Of a stretch of 10,434 nt of DNA, positions 1 through 10,434 are shown piece after piece. Within the stretch, counting starts at the first letter, position 1; the number at the start of each line of letters is the position of its first letter. The notes under the pieces are model-generated. The model searched no databases and was not told the origin of the DNA. It saw only the letters and a list, made by a program, of their open reading frames with translations. A program made the translations under genes and the position numbers. Source of the DNA: Candidatus Jordarchaeales archaeon (lineage in GTDB: Archaea; Asgardarchaeota; Jordiarchaeia; Jordiarchaeales; Freyrarchaeaceae); NCBI GenBank assembly GCA_038858525.1, contig JAWCFL010000039.1, positions 5,285 through 15,718 of the forward strand. The letters are read 5' to 3'.

Positions 1-293
1 CCGTCACCATCAGTGTCAGCTGAAGCCGGGTTAGTGCCACGCTGGTACTCCTGGATGTTGGTCAGCCCGTCGCCGTCCTTATCCTGCCCAGCATCGTCAC
101 TCAGCGGGTCAAGACCATACTGCACCTCCCAGCCATCAGGCATACCATCACCATCAGTGTCAGAGCTCAGCGGGTTCAAGTTGTGCTGCACCTCCCAGCC
201 GTCAGATAGCCCGTCACCATCAGTGTCACTATTGTATGGGTCTGTTCCTATGCTATTTTCCTGGCTGTTTGTTAGCTGGTCTCCGTCGTAGTC
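1..293 (-). repeat. Coding tandem Asp-rich repeats (D-T-D-G-D-G-L/M-x-D/N...E...G/N-T/L-D/N-P), bacterial TSP3-like Ca-binding type
   Basis: Translation: [98 protein letters not shown]. At the DNA level, tgcacctcccagcc recurs at 121-134 and 187-200 (66-nt period). Confidence 0.9.
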
Positions 294-1979
294 TAGAGTG
301 TAATGCTCCATGTAATTTCCTAGGTAATGCCAAAGATATTCATCCCACATGTTGTTGAATGTGAAAGGCAACGCTGTATAGTATGCCTTGTGGTAATTTT
401 GACTTGTGTCGGGGTGGTATATTGCGATTCCACGTGCGTTTGGATGATCCGCTCCCTTTGCTATCGTTATGACTGCGGATGAAATGCTTGATTTGAGAAA
501 GATCGAAAGGGCTGTAAGTTTTGCGTCGGTGATTTTCTGGCTGAGTTTATCGATAAAGTCGTAGAGGTCCACCAAGAAGAAATCTTGATACGTAAATTTT
601 TCTACTTCGTTTAGTGTTTGCTGTATTGCGGTACGCCATGTGCTTTCAATCGTTTTAATGTCAAGGTACTTCGCCGTCTCGTTAAGTGCAATGTAAACAT
701 CAGAGATCCTTGTTACGTTGATTACCGCAAACGACAATCCCGGCGGATTAAGACTGCTGTAGCTATTAACTATCCACTGCCCCAGTTGAGCTGGCGTAGC
801 ACTCGGATTCGCAACCAAAGTTCCAACAAAAGAGTAATCAGTCTCATTATCAACAAGATATATTACGTCTTCAGAAACAACTGCTACTTCTGTCAAATTT
901 CTTAAGGCGTACAAGTGTTCAACTATTCCAGTTAAGCACGCCTTGTAATGTATGAGGTTTACTCCTCCGGTTTCATTTAACGCCATGCGGATTTCTGAAA
1001 AGTTCAGGTTGTCATTGTTATCTGTTCCGTCCCAACAGACGCCATATATTCCGCTGCCATGGTTCCATAGATTTAGGGCATAGCGTTGCGCAGGGAATTT
1101 AGACTTAACGTAACTTATGAAATCCCTCAGAGTTCTATAATCTCCGGTGTTCCTTTCGGCATTACCGAAATCTGAAAGGCATACGGGCCCCTCTTTACCT
1201 ATGTAGTACACTCTGGTCCCAGTCTGAAGGGTATAGGGATTTGTTCCTCCATCATATGGGTCCAAGAGAACAACGAAGTTCACCGAAGCAGTACTACCAA
1301 CACTCGCTATCTCTGCAATGTCACACATGGAGAAAGGCCCTATACCATCTAACCCTTTAGAATCTTCTGCCACCATGTAAAACATATAGGTCCACTGTGC
1401 GGTAGGCTTCGTAATGCTCTGACTCACAGTCACATTCACAGTTAAATTATAGTACCCCCCACTAGGCCAGTCGGCATGGACTTGTATTGTCCAGTACCCT
1501 GTAGGATCTCCTGGTTCCAATGTATAGAGGAGACCTCTTCGAATATCAGGAGGTCGAATATCAGGAAGTGACAAGGTGTTTCGTACCACGCATTGTCCAT
1601 TAGGCGCAAATAAAGCAATTGAAAGATATTCATCTATAGTTCCCTCTTCTAGGTTACAGTCTAATGCGATGTATATGGTGGAGTTGGGGTTACTCACTGT
1701 AATATTATAAAAGTCATCAGCATCCCAAAACCAATCGATAGAGTTATTGATGTATTTTCCTGGTGTTATTATCATTGCTTGACTTGGTGTGTTTCCTGCA
1801 TCATTGGAACTATTGCCGTCCTTAATTGAAGTATAGGTACCGTCGGTGTTTCCTTCATGTTGAGCGGCAAAGACGAGTAGCGGTGAAGCCGTCTGTTGCG
1901 TGGCGTGTAAGAGTATGCCCGTCATTAAAGCGGCCGTCAAAAGTATAACTAGAACAAAAGATACAGTAGCTTTTTTCAT
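1..1979 (-). CDS. Secreted clostripain-family (peptidase C11, clan CD) cysteine protease with an N-terminal signal peptide/anchor, a PPC-like beta domain and C-terminal Asp-rich Ca-binding repeats. The 3' end lies beyond the left window edge.
   Basis: I translated this by hand: ATG at 1979-1977, then 659 codons with no stop to the window edge. The N-terminus is [24 protein letters not shown] (basic plus hydrophobic). C11 motifs: [47 protein letters not shown] (His codon 1059-1061), [18 protein letters not shown] (Cys codon 936-938), DLYDF and GIAIYHP. A GGTGA SD sits at 1989-1993. Confidence 0.9.
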
Positions 1980-2032
1980 CTTAGTTTATCACCTTCCTCT
2001 TTTTGTTTAAATATCATCTCTTTAGAGAGAAA

Positions 2033-2048
2033 TATATAAAAATTTTCG
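2033..2048 (-). promoter_or_regulatory. BRE + TATA box for the C11 peptidase gene
   Basis: Minus strand reads CGAAAATT TTTATATA, about 55-70 nt upstream of the ATG. This matches the archaeal BRE/TATA consensus. Confidence 0.65.
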
Positions 2049-2390
2049 TTGTAGAAAAGATTATTCTTTCAACAGTTACTACGATGAAAGCAAAAACGGA
2101 ATTTGATCTTAAAATAAGCTGAAGGAAGAATACATAGTGTAGTATGTATATAGTTATTCCAAAAAACTACGTGAGAAGGGGGTCCACGCTAGGTAGGCGT
2201 ATCCTAAAAATATGGGTTGGCTTTCGCGAATAAAAAGGGTTTGCTGAAGAGTTAGTAAGGGGGGGTTCAACGCCACTATGCGGAAGCAAAAAGGAAGTTT
2301 TATGGAAGCAAATATATACTGTGCAAGAAGGAATTCAAAAAAGAGTTCAAAGGAACACTTGTCGGGAAAAATCAAGAAAAACAGCCAGAA

Positions 2391-2408
2391 ACGAAAATAA
2401 TTTATAGA
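2391..2408 (+). promoter_or_regulatory. Candidate BRE + TATA box for hdrB
   Basis: ACGAAAATAA TTTATAGA lies about 105 nt upstream of the hdrB ATG, with a GGAGG SD at 2496-2500. Confidence 0.45.
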
Positions 2409-2510
2409 ATTCGTCTAAACGTAAGAGCGGAGTAAGGTGTTACCTATCGCGATAGTGTCGACGTGACTGCGTGAATTCGGCGCGAGAGCATTTAAGGAGG
2501 GATTTAAAAA

Positions 2511-3401
2511 ATGAAGAAATATGCTTACTTTTTAGGGTGTTTAACCCCAAACAGGTATCCGGGTATTGAGGCGGCGACTATTGATCTTTTGAGGATGTTT
2601 GATGTTGAACTTGATTACATGAAGGGGACGTCTTGTTGCCCTGCTCCGGGGGTCTTTGGTAGCTTCGACCTTGAGACCTGGCTTACGATAGCTGCTAGGA
2701 ACATTACTATAGCTGAGGGTATGGGGAGAGATATTACGCTGACCTGTAATGGGTGCTTTGCCACGTTGCAGGAGGCTGACCATGTTCTAAAGCATAACAG
2801 GGAGCTTGTGAAGAAGATTAATGGTCACCTTTCGAAGATTGGAAGGGAGTATAAGGGGACGAGCAACGTTCTCCACGTGATAGAGATCCTCTACAATGAA
2901 ATTGGCCCTGACAGGATAAGTGACATGGTTGTTCAGCCTCTCGACGGAGTTAAGGTTGCTTGTCACTATGGTTGCCACTTCCTGAAGCCGAGCTCGGTGA
3001 GGCAGAGGGGGAACTCTGAAAACCCAACAATGCTGGAGGAGCTAGTTGAAGCTGTTGGCGCTACTCCCGTGGATTATAAGGACAAGAAGATGTGTTGCGG
3101 TGCGGGTGGCGGTGTGAGGGCTGGGAAGATAGACGTGGCGTTGGAGATGACCCGGAAGAAGCTTGACGCGATGATTGAGGCTGGAGCAGACTGTGTAACT
3201 ACACCATGTGTCTTCTGTCACTTCCAGTTTGATGCGGGACAAACAGAGATAAACAGCAAGCTTGGAGCTGAGAAGTACAAGCTCCCAGTAGTCTTCATAA
3301 CTCAGCTTATAGGACTAGCCCTTGGGCTGTCGCCGAGAAGAATGGGGCTTCACAGGCAAAGAATCCCCGTAAAGCCGCTCCTAGACAAAATATTCCACTA
3401 A
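2511..3401 (+). CDS. hdrB: CoB-CoM heterodisulfide reductase subunit B (HdrB) family, two CCG domains
   Basis: 296 aa. Motifs YAYFLGC..., SCCPAPG, TCNGCF, HYGCHFLKP, MCCGAGGG and PCVFCHFQFD give two complete CCG Cys sets in the HdrB pattern. A GGAGG SD is present. Confidence 0.93.
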   Translation: MKKYAYFLGCLTPNRYPGIEAATIDLLRMFDVELDYMKGTSCCPAPGVFGSFDLETWLTIAARNITIAEGMGRDITLTCNGCFATLQEADHVLKHNRELVKKINGHLSKIGREYKGTSNVLHVIEILYNEIGPDRISDMVVQPLDGVKVACHYGCHFLKPSSVRQRGNSENPTMLEELVEAVGATPVDYKDKKMCCGAGGGVRAGKIDVALEMTRKKLDAMIEAGADCVTTPCVFCHFQFDAGQTEINSKLGAEKYKLPVVFITQLIGLALGLSPRRMGLHRQRIPVKPLLDKIFH

Positions 3402-3456
3402 GCCACTTTAAAGACGGGGAATAAGGAAAAAGGGTGACTCGTTAAATAGTCTTTTC

Positions 3457-4584
3457 CTACTTCCGGCTTTCTATTTTTTTGGCGATGGCGTCTCCAACCT
3501 CGCTGGTTCTGCTTGGCTTAACATTAGCGTATTTTCCCTTGCATAGGTCTGGTGTTCTGACTTTTCCCTCCGCTAGTATTTCGGCTACTCCCTGCTCTAT
3601 TAGTTGCGCCGCTTTACTGCAAGAGCTGTCGCCGTTCCTCTGAGCGAGCCACTCGAGCATCATCTTCGCCGAGAGAATGGAGCCTATGGGGTTCGCCACG
3701 TTTTTGCCCGCTATGTCGGGGGCGGTTCCATGCACCGGCTCAAACATGGCGTGTCTGTCCCCAATGTTCCCGCTGGGAGCCATCCCCATGCCACCTATAA
3801 GCACAGAGGATAAGTCTGAGAGTATGTCGCCGAACATGTTTGTCGTCACTACTACATCATAGTGCTCCGGGGACCTTATCATCCACTGGGTCATAGCGTC
3901 CACGTAGACATAGTCCCGCTCAACGCTCGGGTACTTGGCGGCGACCTCGTCAAAGATCTTCCTGAAGAACCTGCAACCATCAAGCACGTTGCTCTTGTCG
4001 ACGCACGTCACCCTGCGCTTCCCGTCAGCAGGAGCCCCGCTTCTTGAAAGGCACAGCTTGAAAGCGTAGTCTATGATCCTCTCGCAACCCTTCCGAGTTA
4101 GGATCCTAACATCCACGGCCGCATCCTCAACTCCGCCCCTGTCCAGAATGCCTCTTATTGGGGCATAGAGGTCCTCCGTGTTCTCCCGCACCACGACGAA
4201 GTCAACCTTGTCCTTGCCCGGAGCGAGAGGCTCAACACCCTCGTAGAGACGAGCGGGCCTAACGTTGGCGTAAAGGTCCAAGCCGAACCTTAAGTCCAGG
4301 AGTATCCTTATTCCCGCAAGTTGCCCGTCTGGGAGAACCGCTTTAGGCCATCCTACAGCCCCAAAAAGAACGGCGTCAGCCTTCCTGCAAGTATCAAAAG
4401 CGTCGTCAGGCCACTCCTTCCCCGTCTCCAAGTAGTATACTCCTCCACATGGAACCTCTATGTATTCCAGTTCGAAGCCGCCAATGGCGCCAGCAGCGGC
4501 ATCTAAAACCTTAACTGCTTCAGGGACAACCTCCCGCCCAACTCCGTCGCCGGGAAGAACAGCAATTCTATAGCGCCTCAACAT
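3457..4584 (-). CDS. Isocitrate/isopropylmalate/tartrate dehydrogenase family (NAD-type beta-decarboxylating dehydrogenase); substrate not assignable
   Basis: Motifs IAVLPGDGVG, GAVGWP, DLYANVRP, VRENTEDLY, VDKSNV, NMFGDILSD and FEPVHGTAPDIAGKNVANP. The start is placed at ATG 4584 because the GTG at 4590 is part of the GAGGTG SD. Confidence 0.88.
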   Translation of the reverse strand: MLRRYRIAVLPGDGVGREVVPEAVKVLDAAAGAIGGFELEYIEVPCGGVYYLETGKEWPDDAFDTCRKADAVLFGAVGWPKAVLPDGQLAGIRILLDLRFGLDLYANVRPARLYEGVEPLAPGKDKVDFVVVRENTEDLYAPIRGILDRGGVEDAAVDVRILTRKGCERIIDYAFKLCLSRSGAPADGKRRVTCVDKSNVLDGCRFFRKIFDEVAAKYPSVERDYVYVDAMTQWMIRSPEHYDVVVTTNMFGDILSDLSSVLIGGMGMAPSGNIGDRHAMFEPVHGTAPDIAGKNVANPIGSILSAKMMLEWLAQRNGDSSCSKAAQLIEQGVAEILAEGKVRTPDLCKGKYANVKPSRTSEVGDAIAKKIESRK

Positions 4585-4688
4585 TAACACCTCAAGAGAG
4601 TCAAGGAAAAGTGACTTAAAAACAACTTAAATTTACCCATGGAGAAGCTCTAAAAAGGAGTTAAGGCAAAAAAGGAGAATATGAAGGG

Positions 4689-5969
4689 CTAAATAACTTT
4701 GTTAAGAACTTCTAGTAGCTCAACGACTTCGAGCTTGGAGCCGCCGGCTGCGACGGCGTCGCCCAAGTTTCTTATGCAGAATGGGCACGACGTGACTATT
4801 GCCTCGGCGCCCGTAGCCTCCGCCTCTTTCACTCTCTCAAGCGCAGTCCATAGGGCAAACTCGGGGTACTGTGTCTTGACGCCGCCACCAGCACCACAGC
4901 ACCATGAATCCTCCTTTACGCGGTACATTTCAACTAGTTCCACTCCCGGTATCGCCTTGAGGATTTTCCTTGGGAGCTCATACCACTCGTCCTTCTTCTT
5001 CTTGATCTCTCTCTCGTCAACGAACCAGTTCTTGCTCTTAGCTAGTTCCTCGCGCTCAACGTCGAGGGCGATGTGCCTCATGAGGTGGCATGGGTCATGC
5101 CATGTGACCTTCTTCTTGTAGCTTCCCTTAAACTTTAGCTTGCCCTGGTCTATGAGTTCAGCTATGAACTCCAACGTGTGCTTGGGTGTGAAGGGCAACT
5201 TCGAGCCGCTGAACTTGGGATAGTCCACTCTAATCGTCCTGTAGCACCCGGCGCAGCTGAAGAGTAGCGTGTCATAGTCCTTAAAGGCCTTCAGGTTCTC
5301 GTTCATAACTCTCTTAGCTTCCTTGCGCTGACCTGTCCTGAAAAGCGGCGAGCCGCAGCAAACTTCATCCTCGAGTACGGCGAACTCGACTCCAAGCTTG
5401 TTCAGTAGCTCAGCTGTAGCCTTTGCCACTTGCTTCTGCCTGTAGGAGGCGGTGCAACCAACAAAGTACGCGATGTTTGCGTCTTTTTTAGTACTGATCT
5501 TTGCCTCGCTAAGCCACTTTGTCCTGTTCTCGTGCTTCTCCCCGTATGGATTGTTAAGCTCACTTACATACTTGCCTAGAGCAGCAGTCTTAGGTGGAAG
5601 GGGGACTCCGGCTTCGACGCATGCTGCCCTTGCAGCCTCGATCAAGTCAACCGTGGGGAGCTTGTTTTCACATTGCGCCTGGCAGTTGCCGCAAGTGGTG
5701 CATGGGTAAATTAGGTCTCTCACACTCTCGTTCGGCACAAGGTTGCCTTCAAGTATTGATCTTAAAATCCACATTCTGCCGCTGTTGAGATATCCTTCCC
5801 ACAGCCGGTAATAGGTTCCGGAGGGGCACCCTTCAATCATACCCTCGTAGAGCGTACCCTTGTATTCCCCAATGCCTTCCCTGTCTGGTTCACCGGAAAA
5901 TGAGAACATGCAGGCTTTACAGTGAATGCAGCGGAAGAGCTCTTTCTTCATCGCTTGGAGGCTTTCCAT
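4689..5969 (-). CDS. HdrD/GlpC-like (Fe-S)-binding protein: two 4Fe-4S motifs plus two CCG domains
   Basis: 426 aa. CIHCKAC...CP and CTTCGNCQAQC, then GCTASY...CCGSP...CAGC and DPCH...WCCGAGGG...CPFC. Confidence 0.88.
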   Translation of the reverse strand: MESLQAMKKELFRCIHCKACMFSFSGEPDREGIGEYKGTLYEGMIEGCPSGTYYRLWEGYLNSGRMWILRSILEGNLVPNESVRDLIYPCTTCGNCQAQCENKLPTVDLIEAARAACVEAGVPLPPKTAALGKYVSELNNPYGEKHENRTKWLSEAKISTKKDANIAYFVGCTASYRQKQVAKATAELLNKLGVEFAVLEDEVCCGSPLFRTGQRKEAKRVMNENLKAFKDYDTLLFSCAGCYRTIRVDYPKFSGSKLPFTPKHTLEFIAELIDQGKLKFKGSYKKKVTWHDPCHLMRHIALDVEREELAKSKNWFVDEREIKKKKDEWYELPRKILKAIPGVELVEMYRVKEDSWCCGAGGGVKTQYPEFALWTALERVKEAEATGAEAIVTSCPFCIRNLGDAVAAGGSKLEVVELLEVLNKVI

Positions 5970-6005
5970 TTTTTATCATCTCCGTGCTATACTCCTCGAG
6001 TTTAT

Positions 6006-6013
6006 TATTTAAA
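6006..6013 (-). promoter_or_regulatory. Candidate proximal TATA box for the HdrD-like gene
   Basis: Minus strand TTTAAATA preceded by GGCAAAG, about 40 nt upstream of ATG 5969. Confidence 0.45.
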
Positions 6014-6044
6014 CTTTGCCCGCCTAGCAGGAGCCGGGCAGTTT
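6011..6044. other. GC-rich inverted repeat/hairpin in the ppcA to hdrD-like intergenic region
   Basis: TGCCCG (6017-6022) pairs with CGGGCA (6035-6040). The stem extends by AAAC/GTTT across a 2-nt bulge and contains an inner CCT/AGG pairing. Confidence 0.6.
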
Positions 6045-6067
6045 CGACTCTCCATCAAGATGAACTG

Positions 6068-6083
6068 GATATAAATTTTATCG
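6068..6083 (-). promoter_or_regulatory. Candidate distal BRE + TATA box for the HdrD-like gene
   Basis: Minus strand CGATAAAA TTTATATC, about 105 nt upstream of ATG 5969. Confidence 0.4.
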
Positions 6084-6172
6084 TTTAGCTTGGAGGACCC
6101 GTTAGCGGATAAAACGGCGTCCGAGGGAGTTGTGGCCTATTGATTTGCCAAGCGCTTTCCGGAATGAACATG

Positions 6173-7741
6173 TTATCCGAGGCACTTCCTGATCATTGCC
6201 GCTTCTTGGAGGTATCTTCTGGCTTCTTCGGGGTTTTCTTCAATGTACGCTATCAAGAAGTTGTTTATGGTGTTCTCATGCTTTCTATGAAGAAAACTTC
6301 TGGGACCCGTTTTGGCTTCCAAGTGGTTTTGGGCTGCTTCGACGTCCTGCAGTATTTTTGAGAGGGCGAATGAGAGCCTTTCTCTCTCCACTCCAGCCTT
6401 CTTAGCCACTTTCTCGTGTGCTTCCATAAGCATGTTTACATTGTCCCATGAAAGGTAACCTGCAGCTGTTTGGACGTCATGCCTTATTTTGAGGTGATGA
6501 GTGACAGCGGCGTCCCATTCCTCCTCGTTTAGCTCGTTCAGCGCTCTTAGCCCCAGTATTTCGGGGGGTATTCCTAAGGTGTAGAGCGCGGCTGCGAATG
6601 GTATTGCTCGAGGGAGCGTGATGCCGCCCATGCTTCTGCTGTAGCCGAAGAGTCCTATGTGGAGTTTTCTGGATCTTCTTTTTGGAACGTATGCTGCAAC
6701 GCTGTTTATGAGGGGGGCTAGGTTTGCTATTACTTCTTGGTAGCTAGCTTTGAGTTTCTGTGTTGCGCTGAGAAGTACCTGTTCTTCATGTGGCTCTAGG
6801 ATTTCTTGTTCACCGTGAGGTAGAATGGTGTTAAGTATCCTAACGGTTCTTTTCACTTCCTCAATTGGATAGTCGTACTTTAGTGAGGATTGTATGGTTA
6901 CAGTGTAGATCCCCCTGTACTCTTCAAGGAAGTTTTGGAGGTTGCTGGGGGAGAGATGTCCTCTGAAGGGCATTGTTCCGACGCCTATTATCGGGTATAT
7001 AGGGATCCCTGTTTCTTCCTCTATTTTTTTGAGCTTTGAAAGGGCGATCTTTGAAAGAAGGACTGCTGGAACGATGCCGTAGTTGAGGGCTGGGTCGGAC
7101 CTCGCCAGGAACACTCTTAGGTAAGGTGGTTTCACCGTGTCCAAGTATGGTTTCACTATTCTTTCAGCTCCTTTGAGGCTTTCCATGTCCTCTATGAGGG
7201 GGATGACTTCTATGGTGGGCGGTTTGAAGCAGCCAACCCAGTCCTTCACTTTTACGGAGGAGTCGATGTCCAGCTCTTGAACTCCAACAATGGCTTTTTT
7301 GTAGTAGTTGAGTAGCCATACGAGCTCTCTGCTGTTAGTTGTGAAGGGCAAAATGACCTCAAATATTGGCGTGACTTCCCTACCATAGAACTTTGAGGCT
7401 ACGTCGCAGCTTACCGGTATGTTGACGAGGCTCTCAACCATTATTTTTTTCTCTGCCTCCTCAACTTTGGGGTTCGGAAGCCTATATGTTAGGAAGACGT
7501 CTCTCCCGATCACGTTCTCCCTGAAGTACTCCTCGTAACTAAGCAGTAGTTTTCTTACGACGTGTGTGTCAACATCCTTTCCTTCGGCGTCCCACATGAC
7601 CTCGTGGCAGCCGAGCTCGCTGAAGACGAAGAACGCCTCGTAGACTTCGTCGTCTTCCTCAATTACTTCACTCTTACACCATTGGGGGACGCAGGCATTG
7701 TCCGGATGCTGGGTGGACATTGTGCGCGGTATTAATCTCAA
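6173..7741 (-). CDS. ppcA: Archaeal-type phosphoenolpyruvate carboxylase
   Basis: 522 aa with a TTG start and a GGTG SD. The N-terminal IPRTMSTQHPDN signature is present, along with MWDAEGKD, RVFLARSDPALNYG, GVGTMPFRG, TIQSS and LPRAIPFAAALY. Confidence 0.95.
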   Translation of the reverse strand: MRLIPRTMSTQHPDNACVPQWCKSEVIEEDDEVYEAFFVFSELGCHEVMWDAEGKDVDTHVVRKLLLSYEEYFRENVIGRDVFLTYRLPNPKVEEAEKKIMVESLVNIPVSCDVASKFYGREVTPIFEVILPFTTNSRELVWLLNYYKKAIVGVQELDIDSSVKVKDWVGCFKPPTIEVIPLIEDMESLKGAERIVKPYLDTVKPPYLRVFLARSDPALNYGIVPAVLLSKIALSKLKKIEEETGIPIYPIIGVGTMPFRGHLSPSNLQNFLEEYRGIYTVTIQSSLKYDYPIEEVKRTVRILNTILPHGEQEILEPHEEQVLLSATQKLKASYQEVIANLAPLINSVAAYVPKRRSRKLHIGLFGYSRSMGGITLPRAIPFAAALYTLGIPPEILGLRALNELNEEEWDAAVTHHLKIRHDVQTAAGYLSWDNVNMLMEAHEKVAKKAGVERERLSFALSKILQDVEAAQNHLEAKTGPRSFLHRKHENTINNFLIAYIEENPEEARRYLQEAAMIRKCLG

Positions 7742-7897: not shown

Positions 7898-9229
7898 CTA
7901 GTACGTCTCCTGCCTCAAAAACTTGATTGCCTCGTTGAGAGCAACTTGCTCATAGCGTCTCTTTCCGTCTTTGAAGTAGATGGTTACGGTCCCCGTAGAA
8001 GCTTCCTTCTCCCCTACGAACACTATGGCGTTTATCCCCTTTTTCTCGCAGTACTCCAGCTGCTTCTTATAGCTTCTCCTCATCAAGTCTACTTGAACTT
8101 TCAGCCCTTCCCTCCTTAATTCTCTCCCCACGTTATGGGCGTAACTCCAATACTTCTCGTCCATGGATACCACGAAGACTTGGGTGCATGTTTTCCTTTC
8201 CAGGTTGAAGAGGCCAAGCTCAAGGCCGGCGTCTATGATCCTCTCCAGTCCTACGCTCACCCCAGTTGATGGGGTTCTTGGGCCGCCGTACCGCTCGATG
8301 AGGTCGTCGTATCGTCCTCCCCCCGCCAGCGCGCCTATCTTAGGCTCCTCAACGTAAACCTCAAAAATGGGCCCAGTATAGTAATCTAGTCCTCTAACCA
8401 TGCTCAAGTCCAGAGTAAGGTTATTCTTGTGGCTGGATGCATCGATCACTCCCTTAAGGTGGTCCACCGCTGTGCAGACGCTCTCGTTCTCCTTAAACTG
8501 GGCTTCAAGTTCGTTCAGCGTCTCCTCAGGGTTCCCCGAAACATCAACGACACCCATTATTTTTTCAACTTCACTCGACCCTAGGCCTATCCTGGTAAGT
8601 TCAGCCTCAACTCCATCCCGCCCTATTTTCTCGAGTTTATCTATCGCCCTGAAAACTTCCAGCACCTTTCCCTCACCGTACCTTGAGAGGTTGAGCTCTT
8701 CTTCAAAAATTCCTCTCAGAAGACGGCGGTCGTTAAGCCTAACTCTGAACTCGCTGTAGCCAAGAGACTCCATCACGTCGCACACGACGTCGATCACCTC
8801 GGCGTCAGCTTCAGGATAGGGGGAGCCCACGATGTCAGCGTCACACTGCCAGAACTCCCTGTAACGCCCCTTCTGAGGCCTCTCATGCCTCCAGACGCGC
8901 CCAACATGATACCTCTTAAAGGGCAACGTGAGTGCTTGGCCCGCAACGAACCTAGCGAGGGGAACAGTGAGGTCGTATCTCAGAGCAAGCCACTCCCCAC
9001 TCCACGGGTCCTGGAAACGGTAAAGAAGCTTCGACTCGACCTCCTCCCCATACTTACCCTTCAAAGTCTCCCAATACTCGATGACGGGAGTCTCAAAGGG
9101 GTCAAACCCATACCGCTCAAATACACCTTCGATAACTCCTATAATTCTCTTCCTGAGAAGAGTAACTTCTGGAGGAAAATCCCTGAAGCCGCGCGGAACA
9201 CTATACTTAGTCGACGCCGACACCTCCAC
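7898..9229 (-). CDS. hisS: Histidine--tRNA ligase
   Basis: 443 aa. Motifs PRGFRDF, LALRYDLTVPLAR, WRHERPQKGRYREFWQCDAD, VRGLDYYTG, GGGRYD and GLERI, followed by a C-terminal anticodon-binding domain. The start is GTG 9229 or GTG 9223. Confidence 0.96.
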   Translation of the reverse strand: MEVSASTKYSVPRGFRDFPPEVTLLRKRIIGVIEGVFERYGFDPFETPVIEYWETLKGKYGEEVESKLLYRFQDPWSGEWLALRYDLTVPLARFVAGQALTLPFKRYHVGRVWRHERPQKGRYREFWQCDADIVGSPYPEADAEVIDVVCDVMESLGYSEFRVRLNDRRLLRGIFEEELNLSRYGEGKVLEVFRAIDKLEKIGRDGVEAELTRIGLGSSEVEKIMGVVDVSGNPEETLNELEAQFKENESVCTAVDHLKGVIDASSHKNNLTLDLSMVRGLDYYTGPIFEVYVEEPKIGALAGGGRYDDLIERYGGPRTPSTGVSVGLERIIDAGLELGLFNLERKTCTQVFVVSMDEKYWSYAHNVGRELRREGLKVQVDLMRRSYKKQLEYCEKKGINAIVFVGEKEASTGTVTIYFKDGKRRYEQVALNEAIKFLRQETY

Positions 9230-9319
9230 AAGGAAGACGAGACAAAAACTAGATGATAGGAGAGATAAAATTAACGCTCAAAGAGCAAGAAACGAAAAGT
9301 ATGAGGGTGCCGGGCGGGA

Positions 9320-9339
9320 CTCTCGTGGTTGAGCACCAA
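9320..9339 (-). other. tRNA intron 4, T-loop position 59/60 (20 nt)
   Basis: TTGGTGCTCAACCACGAGAG. This is a complete hBHBh': outer helix GCGGG/CCCGC, central helix TTCG/CGAG, bulges AT|T and AG|T, inner helix TGGT/ACCA. Confidence 0.85.
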
Positions 9340-9360
9340 ATCGAACCCGCGACCCCAGGA

Positions 9361-9380
9361 TTGCACGCGCGTGAAGCGCC
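9361..9380 (-). other. tRNA intron 3, predicted position 38/39 (20 nt)
   Basis: GGCGCTTCACGCGCGTGCAA. The inner helix is GCGC/GCGC and both cuts fall in 3-nt bulges (AA|G, AA|T). The central helix is imperfect: GCA(G)C/GTGC. The register is ambiguous over the flanking GCAA repeat. Confidence 0.6.
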
Positions 9381-9381
9381 T

Positions 9382-9400
9382 TGCTGCCCCCAAGCCGGGT
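9382..9400 (-). other. tRNA intron 2, canonical position 37/38 (19 nt)
   Basis: ACCCGGCTTGGGGGCAGCA. The central helix is CTGT/GCAG, with bulges GG|A and CA|A and an inner helix CCC/GGG. Confidence 0.8.
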
Positions 9401-9415
9401 CCACAGTCCTGTGCT

Positions 9416-9431
9416 TACGGGGTTCTAAGCT
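9416..9431 (-). other. tRNA intron 1, position 22/23 (16 nt)
   Basis: AGCTTAGAACCCCGTA. The central helix is TGGG/CCCG with bulges AG|A and TA|A. Of the four registers allowed by the AGC repeat, only 22/23 gives a 4-bp central helix. The inner helix is weak (relaxed BHB). Confidence 0.75.
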
Positions 9432-9481
9432 CTCCCAAGCTGAGCTACCGGCACCTCATCGAGAAATTAGAAGAAAACAAT

Positions 9482-9497
9482 TTTTAAAAGTTTTCTA
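9482..9497 (-). promoter_or_regulatory. BRE + TATA box of tRNA-His
   Basis: Minus strand TAGAAAAC TTTTAAAA. The TATA lies 28-35 nt upstream of G1, consistent with a short 5' leader. Confidence 0.65.
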
Positions 9498-9513: not shown

Positions 9514-9600
9514 TTACCGTTGTCGGATAGTTAACTTTTTATAACTATCCGTTCCACCTCTTTAAGTTCATCGGTGGCTTTCGCCGCCAACGGTAAAGGA
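9514..9600 (-). ncRNA. Predicted TnpB omegaRNA/reRNA scaffold (element right end) overlapping the tnpB 3' end
   Basis: A perfect 10-bp hairpin CGGATAGTTA/TAACTATCCG (9524-9551) spans the stop codon. There is also a GAAA-tetraloop hairpin (9571-9590) and a 9-bp long-range complement TTACCGTTG/CAACGGTAA (9596-9588 with 9522-9514). TnpB guide scaffolds are known to derive from the right end. Confidence 0.6.
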
Positions 9601-10434
9601 CGGCACATTGGGAGCTTCATGGCTATATTCCATGCAGCGACAAGGTGTCTATCTGCCTGGAACCCGCACCGCCTACACTTGAAGACATGCCCATTCGGCT
9701 TATTCAACCCGCCACACATCGGGCACGTCCTAGAGGTGTTCTTAGCGTCAACTATTTCAGGATTAAAGCCATGCTCCATCGACTTATAAGAAATGTAAAG
9801 CTGGATTCTCCTGAATGGCATGCTGTGGAGCCTCCTATTCATCACCCTACCATACCGAATCCTCCCCCTGATATGGGTGAGCTCCTCCATTACAGGCTTA
9901 ACGTTTTCCTCGGCAACTATACGGGTTACAATCTTCGCCGCCCTATGGAGTACGTCGTTTACCCTCCGCCTCTCCCTCCCAGAATACTTCGATAACAGCC
10001 TAGCTCTTGTCTTCCCCGAGGTCTTGCTCTGAATGCTCCTCCTCTTCCTGAAGTACCTGCCTCTAATGTGTTTTGCCTCACTTATATCTATCTTGATGAA
10101 CCTAACCTTACCCGGCTTCACAACAGCCAAATCTACACTACACTCATTAACATCGATGCCTAGTATGCCTTCAGCCTCCCCCTCCTCAACAGTCCTCCTA
10201 AAAGTAACATGAAGATAGTATTCATTATTAAATTTTACAAGCCTTGAGCCTTTAACCTGCCAGTGCATGAACTTCCTTGAATGCTCATGAACCCTGAACG
10301 GAATCGCGATGTGTCCTTTGTGCGTAGCCAGCCTTACGCATCCCCAACTGAACCAGAACAGGTGGGCGTCGTCCAAAAGAATGCTTATCTTTTCAACCCT
10401 TGGAGGACCAATTTCCTTTCTCCTCCTGGAGAGC
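9531..10434 (-). CDS. tnpB: TnpB family RNA-guided endonuclease (IS200/IS605 OrfB); 5' end beyond the right window edge
   Basis: RuvC-I GILGIDVN (Asp 10152-10154), RuvC-II VMEEL (Glu 9885-9887), NTSRTCPMCG...FKCRRCG zinc ribbon and the RuvC-III region ADRHLVAAWNIA. The frame stays open upstream of the track's TTG at 10376 (…LSRRRKEIGPPRVEKISILLDD…). Confidence 0.93.
   Translation of the reverse strand, partial: LSRRRKEIGPPRVEKISILLDDAHLFWFSWGCVRLATHKGHIAIPFRVHEHSRKFMHWQVKGSRLVKFNNEYYLHVTFRRTVEEGEAEGILGIDVNECSVDLAVVKPGKVRFIKIDISEAKHIRGRYFRKRRSIQSKTSGKTRARLLSKYSGRERRRVNDVLHRAAKIVTRIVAEENVKPVMEELTHIRGRIRYGRVMNRRLHSMPFRRIQLYISYKSMEHGFNPEIVDAKNTSRTCPMCGGLNKPNGHVFKCRRCGFQADRHLVAAWNIAMKLPMCRPLPLAAKATDELKEVERIVIKS

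Follow-up and report, generated by a model that had tools for sequence, protein, structure and literature searches.

Previously described genomes of the Asgard lineages Freyarchaeia and Atabeyarchaeia contain introns in 92-95% of their tRNA genes, with over half carrying several, and many of these introns occupy non-canonical positions (Valentin-Alvarado et al., 2024; PMC11291895). The columns of Supplementary Data 4 of that study reach 'intron 4': four introns are listed for Arg-TCT and Ile2-CAT of Freyarchaeia and, after curation, for Leu-GAG of Freyarchaeia and Trp-CCA of Atabeyarchaeia, and the 38 tRNAs tabulated for the complete Freyarchaeia genome include no tRNA-His entry. A census of tRNA intervening sequences (Goswami et al., bioRxiv 10.64898/2026.10.13.758758) gives 2.0-2.4 per tRNA gene in Jordiarchaeaceae and Freyrarchaeaceae, a mean of 2.2 and up to five per gene in three focal families including Jordiarchaeaceae, and a Jordiarchaeaceae mean of 2.01 in an independent panel; D-arm insertions are missed most often, and T-arm insertions lie mostly at canonical BHBs. 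Outside this group, tRNAs of Thermoproteales contain BHB introns at non-canonical positions with up to three per gene (Sugahara et al., 2008; Pyrobaculum calidifontis; as relayed by PMC8450103). Where archaeal introns are closely spaced, one may have to be removed before the next BHB can form (tRNAscan-SE 2.0 paper, PMC8450103).

The tRNA-His(GUG) gene described here shares with the Thermoproteales genes the non-canonical BHB introns, some of them so close that one would have to leave before the next BHB forms. It differs in phylum (Asgard versus Thermoproteota), and both the maximum per gene (three) and the mean intron burden (0.84 per gene; 1.54 in P. calidifontis) of Thermoproteales are lower. 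The initial annotation of this DNA had chosen Thermoproteales as its frame, which does not suit a host that is an Asgard archaeon of the Jordarchaeia. The closer comparison is with the Freyarchaeia of PMC11291895 (= Jordarchaeia, Freyrarchaeaceae), with which the host, a hot-spring Jordarchaeum, shares the class but neither family nor genus.

The 10,434-nt stretch of DNA analysed here (the window, contig G000:C39) belongs to a 2.09-Mb, 63-contig assembly with 47% G+C and 92.7% completeness. At 9306-9455 on its minus strand, it carries a 150-nt gene that extends from G-1 to C73, with CCA not encoded, and that we interpret, from sequence comparison, as a real and functional tRNA-His(GUG) gene, present in a single copy in a Candidatus Jordarchaeum-like Asgard archaeon, with a rough probability of 0.7 for this explanation as a whole. 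Read from the minus strand with G-1 first, the tRNA body is interrupted three times. Excision of 16 nt (9416-9431), 39 nt and 20 nt (9320-9339) yields a perfect 75-nt tRNA-His sequence, which ARAGORN calls tRNA-His(gtg), in agreement with the initial annotation; in its drawing the acceptor stem (G-1:C73) has 8 bp, the D stem 4 bp and the anticodon and T stems 5 bp each. The 5' end consists of G-1 and the acceptor strand GUGCCGG, the 3' end of CCGGCAC and C73, and the histidine identity set is present in the form of the GUG anticodon and the extra G-1 paired with C73. Exon 1 (9432-9455, 24 nt) comprises G-1, the 5' strands of the acceptor and D stems and the D loop up to G22; exon 2 (9401-9415, 15 nt) runs from A23 to G37 and includes the anticodon; exon 3 is the single nucleotide A38 (9381), lying between two introns; exon 4 (9340-9360, 21 nt) spans U39 to U59 and contains the 3' strand of the anticodon stem, the variable loop, the 5' strand of the T stem and most of the T loop; and exon 5 (9306-9319, 14 nt) covers U60 to C73, all on the minus strand. 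Introns and exons each sum to 75 nt, so that half of the precursor is intron, in line with the initial annotation, which had set 75 nt of intron against 74 nt of exon.

The unspliced gene was missed by ARAGORN, with and without its intron option (-i), and by the Rfam tRNA model at the gathering threshold as well as at E <= 1 on the whole genome, which bears out, for these two tools, the expectation that standard finders would miss or miscall it. When just the 37/38 intron is kept, ARAGORN detects the tRNA, and in most orthologs it then reports Asp or Asn because it puts the intron in the wrong place. Neither BLAST with the mature tRNA nor a structural regex for a His anticodon arm found another tRNA-His locus in the 92.7%-complete assembly, and the genome probably has no second one. 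Genome-wide, ARAGORN and Rfam reported 11 and 8 tRNAs, respectively, and these low counts are what heavy interruption of most of its tRNA genes would produce. A tRNA-Arg(GCG) gene (G000:C4:38169-38337, plus strand) contains five inserts of 14, 17, 16, 28 and 19 nt with a 4/4 central BHB helix at all five junctions, and its spliced form is recognised by ARAGORN. Furthermore, removal of 23 + 82 + 20 nt from a 199-nt tRNA-Trp(CCA) gene (G000:C5:47059-47257, plus strand) leaves a tRNA-Trp cloverleaf, which amounts to at least three inserts, and the 82-nt anticodon-loop insert may in turn be compound. It had been proposed that four introns would match or exceed the known extreme. This was not upheld, given the four-intron tRNAs tabulated in PMC11291895, the up to five per gene in the preprint and the five-intron tRNA-Arg(GCG) of the window genome. 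Four introns are a record neither for archaea nor for the window genome and leave the upper limit per tRNA unchanged, and the tRNA-His is a further case of the already documented heavy interruption in the Jordarchaeia lineage.

Six distinct sequences were compared, namely those of the window genome, of G001, G002 and G003 from the same genus, of G004 from the sister genus and of L136, a sister-genus variant on a metagenome contig. The positions 22/23, 37/38, 38/39 and 59/60 and the lengths of 16, 19, 20 and 20 nt given in the initial annotation, here termed introns D, a, b and T, are exactly those that yield BHB geometry in a scan of the locus. The geometry, which is reportedly due to Marck and Grosjean in 2003, was scored at every candidate boundary: each strand carries a 3-nt bulge beside a central helix of 4 bp and is cut behind its second bulge nucleotide, and further helices flank the motif on the outer and the inner side. 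Canonical and relaxed BHB classes follow Goswami et al. (bioRxiv 10.64898/2026.10.13.758758). At the exact boundaries, the central helix is 4/4 for introns D, a and T of the window genome. Intron T (9320-9339, minus strand, 20 nt, at 59/60) forms a strict hBHBh' motif with the 5-bp T stem as outer helix and 4 inner bp; the motif is strict in 6/6 sequences, with an inner helix of 3-7 bp and U-G/U-A changes in the central helix, and also appears in the MFE fold of the full precursor. Intron a (9382-9400, minus strand, 19 nt) lies at the canonical position 37/38 and pairs C32-U35 with GCAG in its central helix, with an inner CCC:GGG helix of 3 bp and an outer helix of 5 bp once intron b is gone. 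Intron D (9416-9431, minus strand, 16 nt, at 22/23) has the central helix UGGG:CCCG and flanking helices of 1 bp each; inner pairs number 2-3 in G001 and G002, and the central helix is 4/4 in 4/4 same-genus sequences through U-G/U-A and G-C/G-U changes. Placing this intron at 23/24 to 25/26, which gives the same mature sequence, leaves no central helix, and 22/23 is the only one of the four placements to have one.

Intron b (9361-9380, minus strand, 20 nt, at 38/39) has a 4-bp inner hairpin (GCGC/GCGC), a 3-bp outer helix (GGG:CCU) and, in the window genome, a central helix of 2/4 in the canonical register or of 4 bp with one bulged A. Its motif is canonical (4/4 central, outer 4-5) in G004 and L136, reaches 3/4 in G001 and G003 and 1/4 in G002. 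When each intron was shuffled 20,000 times and central plus inner pairing was counted at the exact boundaries, the observed pairing was reached in about 0.1% of shuffles for T, 0.5% for a, 1% for b and 2% for D. The MFE of the whole precursor showed no extra stability over shuffles (z = -0.70) and was uninformative. Together with the conservation of the motifs in diverged introns and their presence or absence across genera, the shuffles indicate that the intron motifs exceed chance. Within the best explanation, introns D and T are predicted to be independent of the other introns.

Whether the locus has three or four introns depends on the 39-nt insert in the anticodon loop. Taken as a single intron, the insert yields 0-1/4 central pairs in all six orthologs, and a single 39-nt intron at either 37/38 or 38/39 has no BHB in any of them. 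A nested model, in which the inner piece is shifted by one nucleotide and position 38 is the last base of the insert, also lacks a BHB and gives C38 or G38 in two orthologs. Intron a ends in GCAGYA and is followed by A in 6/6 orthologs. Immediately ahead of position 39 the base differs among them (A, A, C, G, A, A), and intron b precisely fills the interval from A38 to U39. For its BHB, intron b takes the 3' part of intron a (GGG + GCAGC) as the 5' strand: the outer helix forms with positions 40-42(43), with CAGG replacing GGG in the sister genus, and in the central helix CAGY of intron a pairs with the 3' end of b. The 5-bp anticodon stem constitutes the outer helix of intron a and becomes adjacent only once b is removed, which then gives a strict BHB. 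An exhaustive search for one-, two- or three-step excision paths to the mature anticodon arm returned only b then a wherever a path exists, with both steps canonical in G004 and L136 and a relaxed b step in G001 and G003; in G002 no BHB excision path was found.

The split of the insert into 19 + 20 nt made in the initial annotation is the only BHB-consistent route, with a central helix of 2/4 for b in the window genome. Because the 38/39 motif is degenerate in this genome, four units rather than three can be called no more than likely; the four-unit decomposition is the only one consistent with BHB geometry across the orthologs. If there were three introns instead, the insert would be removed whole at 37/38 by a broad-specificity endonuclease tolerating a non-BHB 3' site, and the internal GCAGYA|A would be a mere relic of an older, shorter intron. 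Such a scheme would give the identical mature product in the window genome, where A stands on both flanks, it accommodates the degenerate intron b BHB of the window genome and G002, and a motif-free census would score the 39-nt insert as one intervening sequence. We nevertheless regard it as unlikely: the 3' site of a single intron has only the 0-1/4 central pairs given above in every ortholog, and whole removal would yield C38 in G003 and G38 in G002, the latter able to pair with C32 and shrink the loop, whereas two introns leave A38 throughout. In addition, both units have canonical BHBs in G004 and L136, and a b-free state exists in the distant Asgard genome G029. A caveat on the four units is that relaxed BHB classes are frequent by chance (bioRxiv 10.64898/2026.10.13.758758).

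We give even odds that the anticodon loop contains two abutting introns around a one-nucleotide exon (A38), in which the younger 38/39 intron, having no exon-based 5' half, would borrow the 3' half of the older intron as its BHB 5' strand and thereby enforce the order b then a. No prior description of an abutting 37/38 and 38/39 pair around a one-nucleotide exon was found, and the pair is undescribed for the Freyarchaeia and Atabeyarchaeia of PMC11291895. The text of the Goswami et al. preprint mentions neither adjacent or nested introns nor tRNA-His, and its census would score this gene as three inserts, since any contiguous insert of >= 10 nt counts as one unit.

In all orthologous genomes, the same interrupted tRNA-His gene is the only match, and removal of the inserts restores a cloverleaf that ARAGORN calls tRNA-His(gtg) in the window genome and in the five orthologous sequences. 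G-1 is genome-encoded in every ortholog. Across the six sequences, exons are 92-97% identical, differing at 2-6/75 positions, and introns are 50-80% identical, vary in length (D 15-19 nt, a 15-20, b 13-20, T 17-24) and retain BHB geometry. G002 carries a compensatory exon change from A28:U42 to G28:C42. Positions 26 and 44, which form the 26-44 tertiary pair (window 9412 and 9355), show a coordinated swap, with A26/G44 in the window genome and G26/A44 in all five other sequences.

The gene is accompanied by a conserved neighbourhood. A TATA-like box, TTTTAAAAA (9481-9489, minus strand), was read from the sequence 26-34 nt upstream of G-1; box and spacing recur upstream of the tRNA-His orthologs, and we take it to be a putative promoter. 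The histidyl-tRNA synthetase gene hisS (7898-9229, minus strand; Pfam tRNA-synt_His and HGTP_anticodon) starts 77 nt downstream of the tRNA 3' end on the same strand, which places the tRNA beside its own synthetase, and two other Jordarchaeum genomes (L013, L022) have the same arrangement. The window HisRS shows 81-83% identity to its counterparts in 'Candidatus Jordarchaeia archaeon QC4' and 'Candidatus Jordarchaeum sp. LHC_1308'. On the other side, a TnpB-like ORF (9531-10433, minus strand) with Cas12f1-like TNB and OrfB_IS605 domains stops 75 nt before the tRNA on its upstream side; in the other direction it continues past the window edge. At least 10 TnpB copies with 72-91% aa identity occur in the genome, many of them at contig ends. 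None adjoins tRNA-His in other species, so the TnpB is a species-specific IS insertion near the tRNA promoter. The remainder of the window (3-7741) encodes a clostripain-family peptidase with bacterial TSP3 repeats, two CCG-domain (Hdr-like) proteins, an isocitrate/isopropylmalate dehydrogenase and an archaeal-type PEP carboxylase.

Two further rival readings concern the locus as a whole. It could be a decaying, non-functional tRNA-His pseudogene whose working copy lies in the unassembled 7% of the genome, to which the incomplete assembly, the weak intron b motif of the window genome and the multi-copy TnpB element just upstream lend some room. This is very unlikely in view of the strong purifying selection on the exons across the five other sequences, with compensatory changes, the conserved TATA box and hisS neighbourhood, the single His-like locus in the assembly and the interrupted gene being the sole match in every orthologous genome. 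The second reading, in which the locus would have arisen by misassembly or chimerism in a 63-contig metagenome-assembled genome, is argued against by the separate metagenome contig L137, which carries the identical 150-nt sequence with identical flanks and a neighbouring TnpB that differs (98% aa identical); the same architecture in four other species genomes leaves such an artefact a negligible probability. Jointly, the ortholog, TATA-box, single-locus and L137 evidence makes pseudogene or artefact unlikely, and a genuine, working tRNA-His gene remains our preferred interpretation.

The distribution of the introns is informative about their origin. Intron D is absent from the sister genus (G004, L136), which marks it as a discrete 15-19-nt element. 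In G029, a distant Asgard genome of another family, the tRNA-His locus L127 contains only a 14-nt homolog of intron a that ends in GCAGCA|A and is followed directly by positions 39-43, and its D and T arms are uninterrupted. The two genes have in common the acceptor and G-1:C73 design, the anticodon loop and the homologous 37/38 intron starting with A, whereas the D-arm, 38/39 and T-loop introns occur only in the window gene, and G029 represents the less interrupted state. ARAGORN calls L127 (G029:C24, about 33300-33400) Asp(gtc) with a misplaced intron, and BHB geometry and the G-1:C73 stem identify it as tRNA-His(GUG). In a phylum-wide pattern search with the anticodon loop plus intron a, nearly everything matched outside the family was coding DNA hit by chance, and G029 gave the sole real tRNA-His. 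A metagenome scan for b-free Jordarchaeum-type variants returned four contigs, all with b, and one new sequence variant. The distant Asgard family has a alone, the sister genus a, b and T, and the window genus all four introns; this series suggests stepwise gain, and the sister genus without intron D and the distant tRNA-His with the 37/38 intron alone mark the inserts as discrete gains made one after another. This agrees with the repeated gains of tRNA intervening sequences reconstructed by Goswami et al. (bioRxiv 10.64898/2026.10.13.758758). Copying from another tRNA gene is unsupported, since no paralogous copies of the four introns were detected in the genome, where searches gave only chance matches of 11-13 nt.

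In the related Freyrarchaeaceae, mature-sequence and pattern searches of five genomes found no tRNA-His, and the mature sequence matched only other tRNAs or coding DNA. One of these (G006) is a complete genome whose coordinates match the published Freyarchaeia tRNA table, and a differently arranged set of introns probably conceals its tRNA-His.

The genome encodes two EndA paralogues with PF01974 matches, as ORFs of 191 aa (G000:C3) and 198 aa (G000:C43). The alignment of the 191-aa protein with the A. pernix catalytic subunit (3p1z_B, E 1.6e-48) runs from end to end, and the protein keeps Tyr/His/Lys. Its segment GQPLGIRKPKTPQF aligns gap-free to A. pernix GQPLDVEKPRGADF (K44, R46), with K-P-K opposite K44-P-R46 of the Crenarchaea-specific loop, a loop that enables the enzyme to cut non-canonical positions and motifs (Hirata et al., 2011; PMC3241643). 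The 198-aa protein is without the His at the catalytic position in alignments of the ORFs and looks like a structural subunit. An (alpha-beta)2 enzyme was defined as two EndAs of about 170-200 aa of which one alone has the full catalytic Tyr/His/Lys. The pair fits such an enzyme with a putative Crenarchaea-specific-loop-like insert, an assignment supported at the level of gene content; it is the type present, with a Crenarchaea-specific loop, in Thermoproteales, and two EndA paralogues are found in most Asgard genomes (Goswami et al., bioRxiv 10.64898/2026.10.13.758758). The broad-specificity endonuclease of (alpha-beta)2 or epsilon2 type predicted in the initial annotation is thus matched, in its (alpha-beta)2 form, by two EndA paralogues, one of them with the full set of catalytic residues and with a predicted loop containing K-P-K.

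From the observed sequence architecture, conservation, BHB geometry and gene content, a splicing route can be proposed in which expression, the actual cleavage sites and the order of splicing are predictions. The pre-tRNA-His would be transcribed from its own TATA promoter as a 150-nt precursor with four protein-spliced (EndA/BHB-type) introns, D, a, b and T. An (alpha-beta)2 splicing endonuclease with a Crenarchaea-specific-loop-like insert would cut each 3-nt bulge behind its second nucleotide, and the exons would be joined by a ligase. Intron b would leave first, through a BHB contributed by the 3' part of intron a, in which GGG pairs with 40-42 and GCAGY with the 3' end of b. Its removal would set A38 beside U39, and the anticodon stem could then act as outer helix in a canonical BHB around intron a. 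As the introns would be removed sequentially, A38 would always be attached to a larger exon, and there would be no free one-nucleotide exon to ligate.

The tRNA-His of this clade is invisible to ARAGORN and Rfam and absent from the published table of the complete Freyarchaeia genome, and annotation pipelines may for this reason report an essential tRNA as missing. If the anticodon-loop arrangement proposed here is true, insert-counting censuses undercount Asgard tRNA introns wherever two abut, and the BHB of an existing intron can seed the next insertion, so that introns beget introns. The tRNA-His gene offers a clean, comparatively dated case of stepwise intron accumulation, from one to three to four introns, and would also show an enforced splicing order around a single-nucleotide exon.
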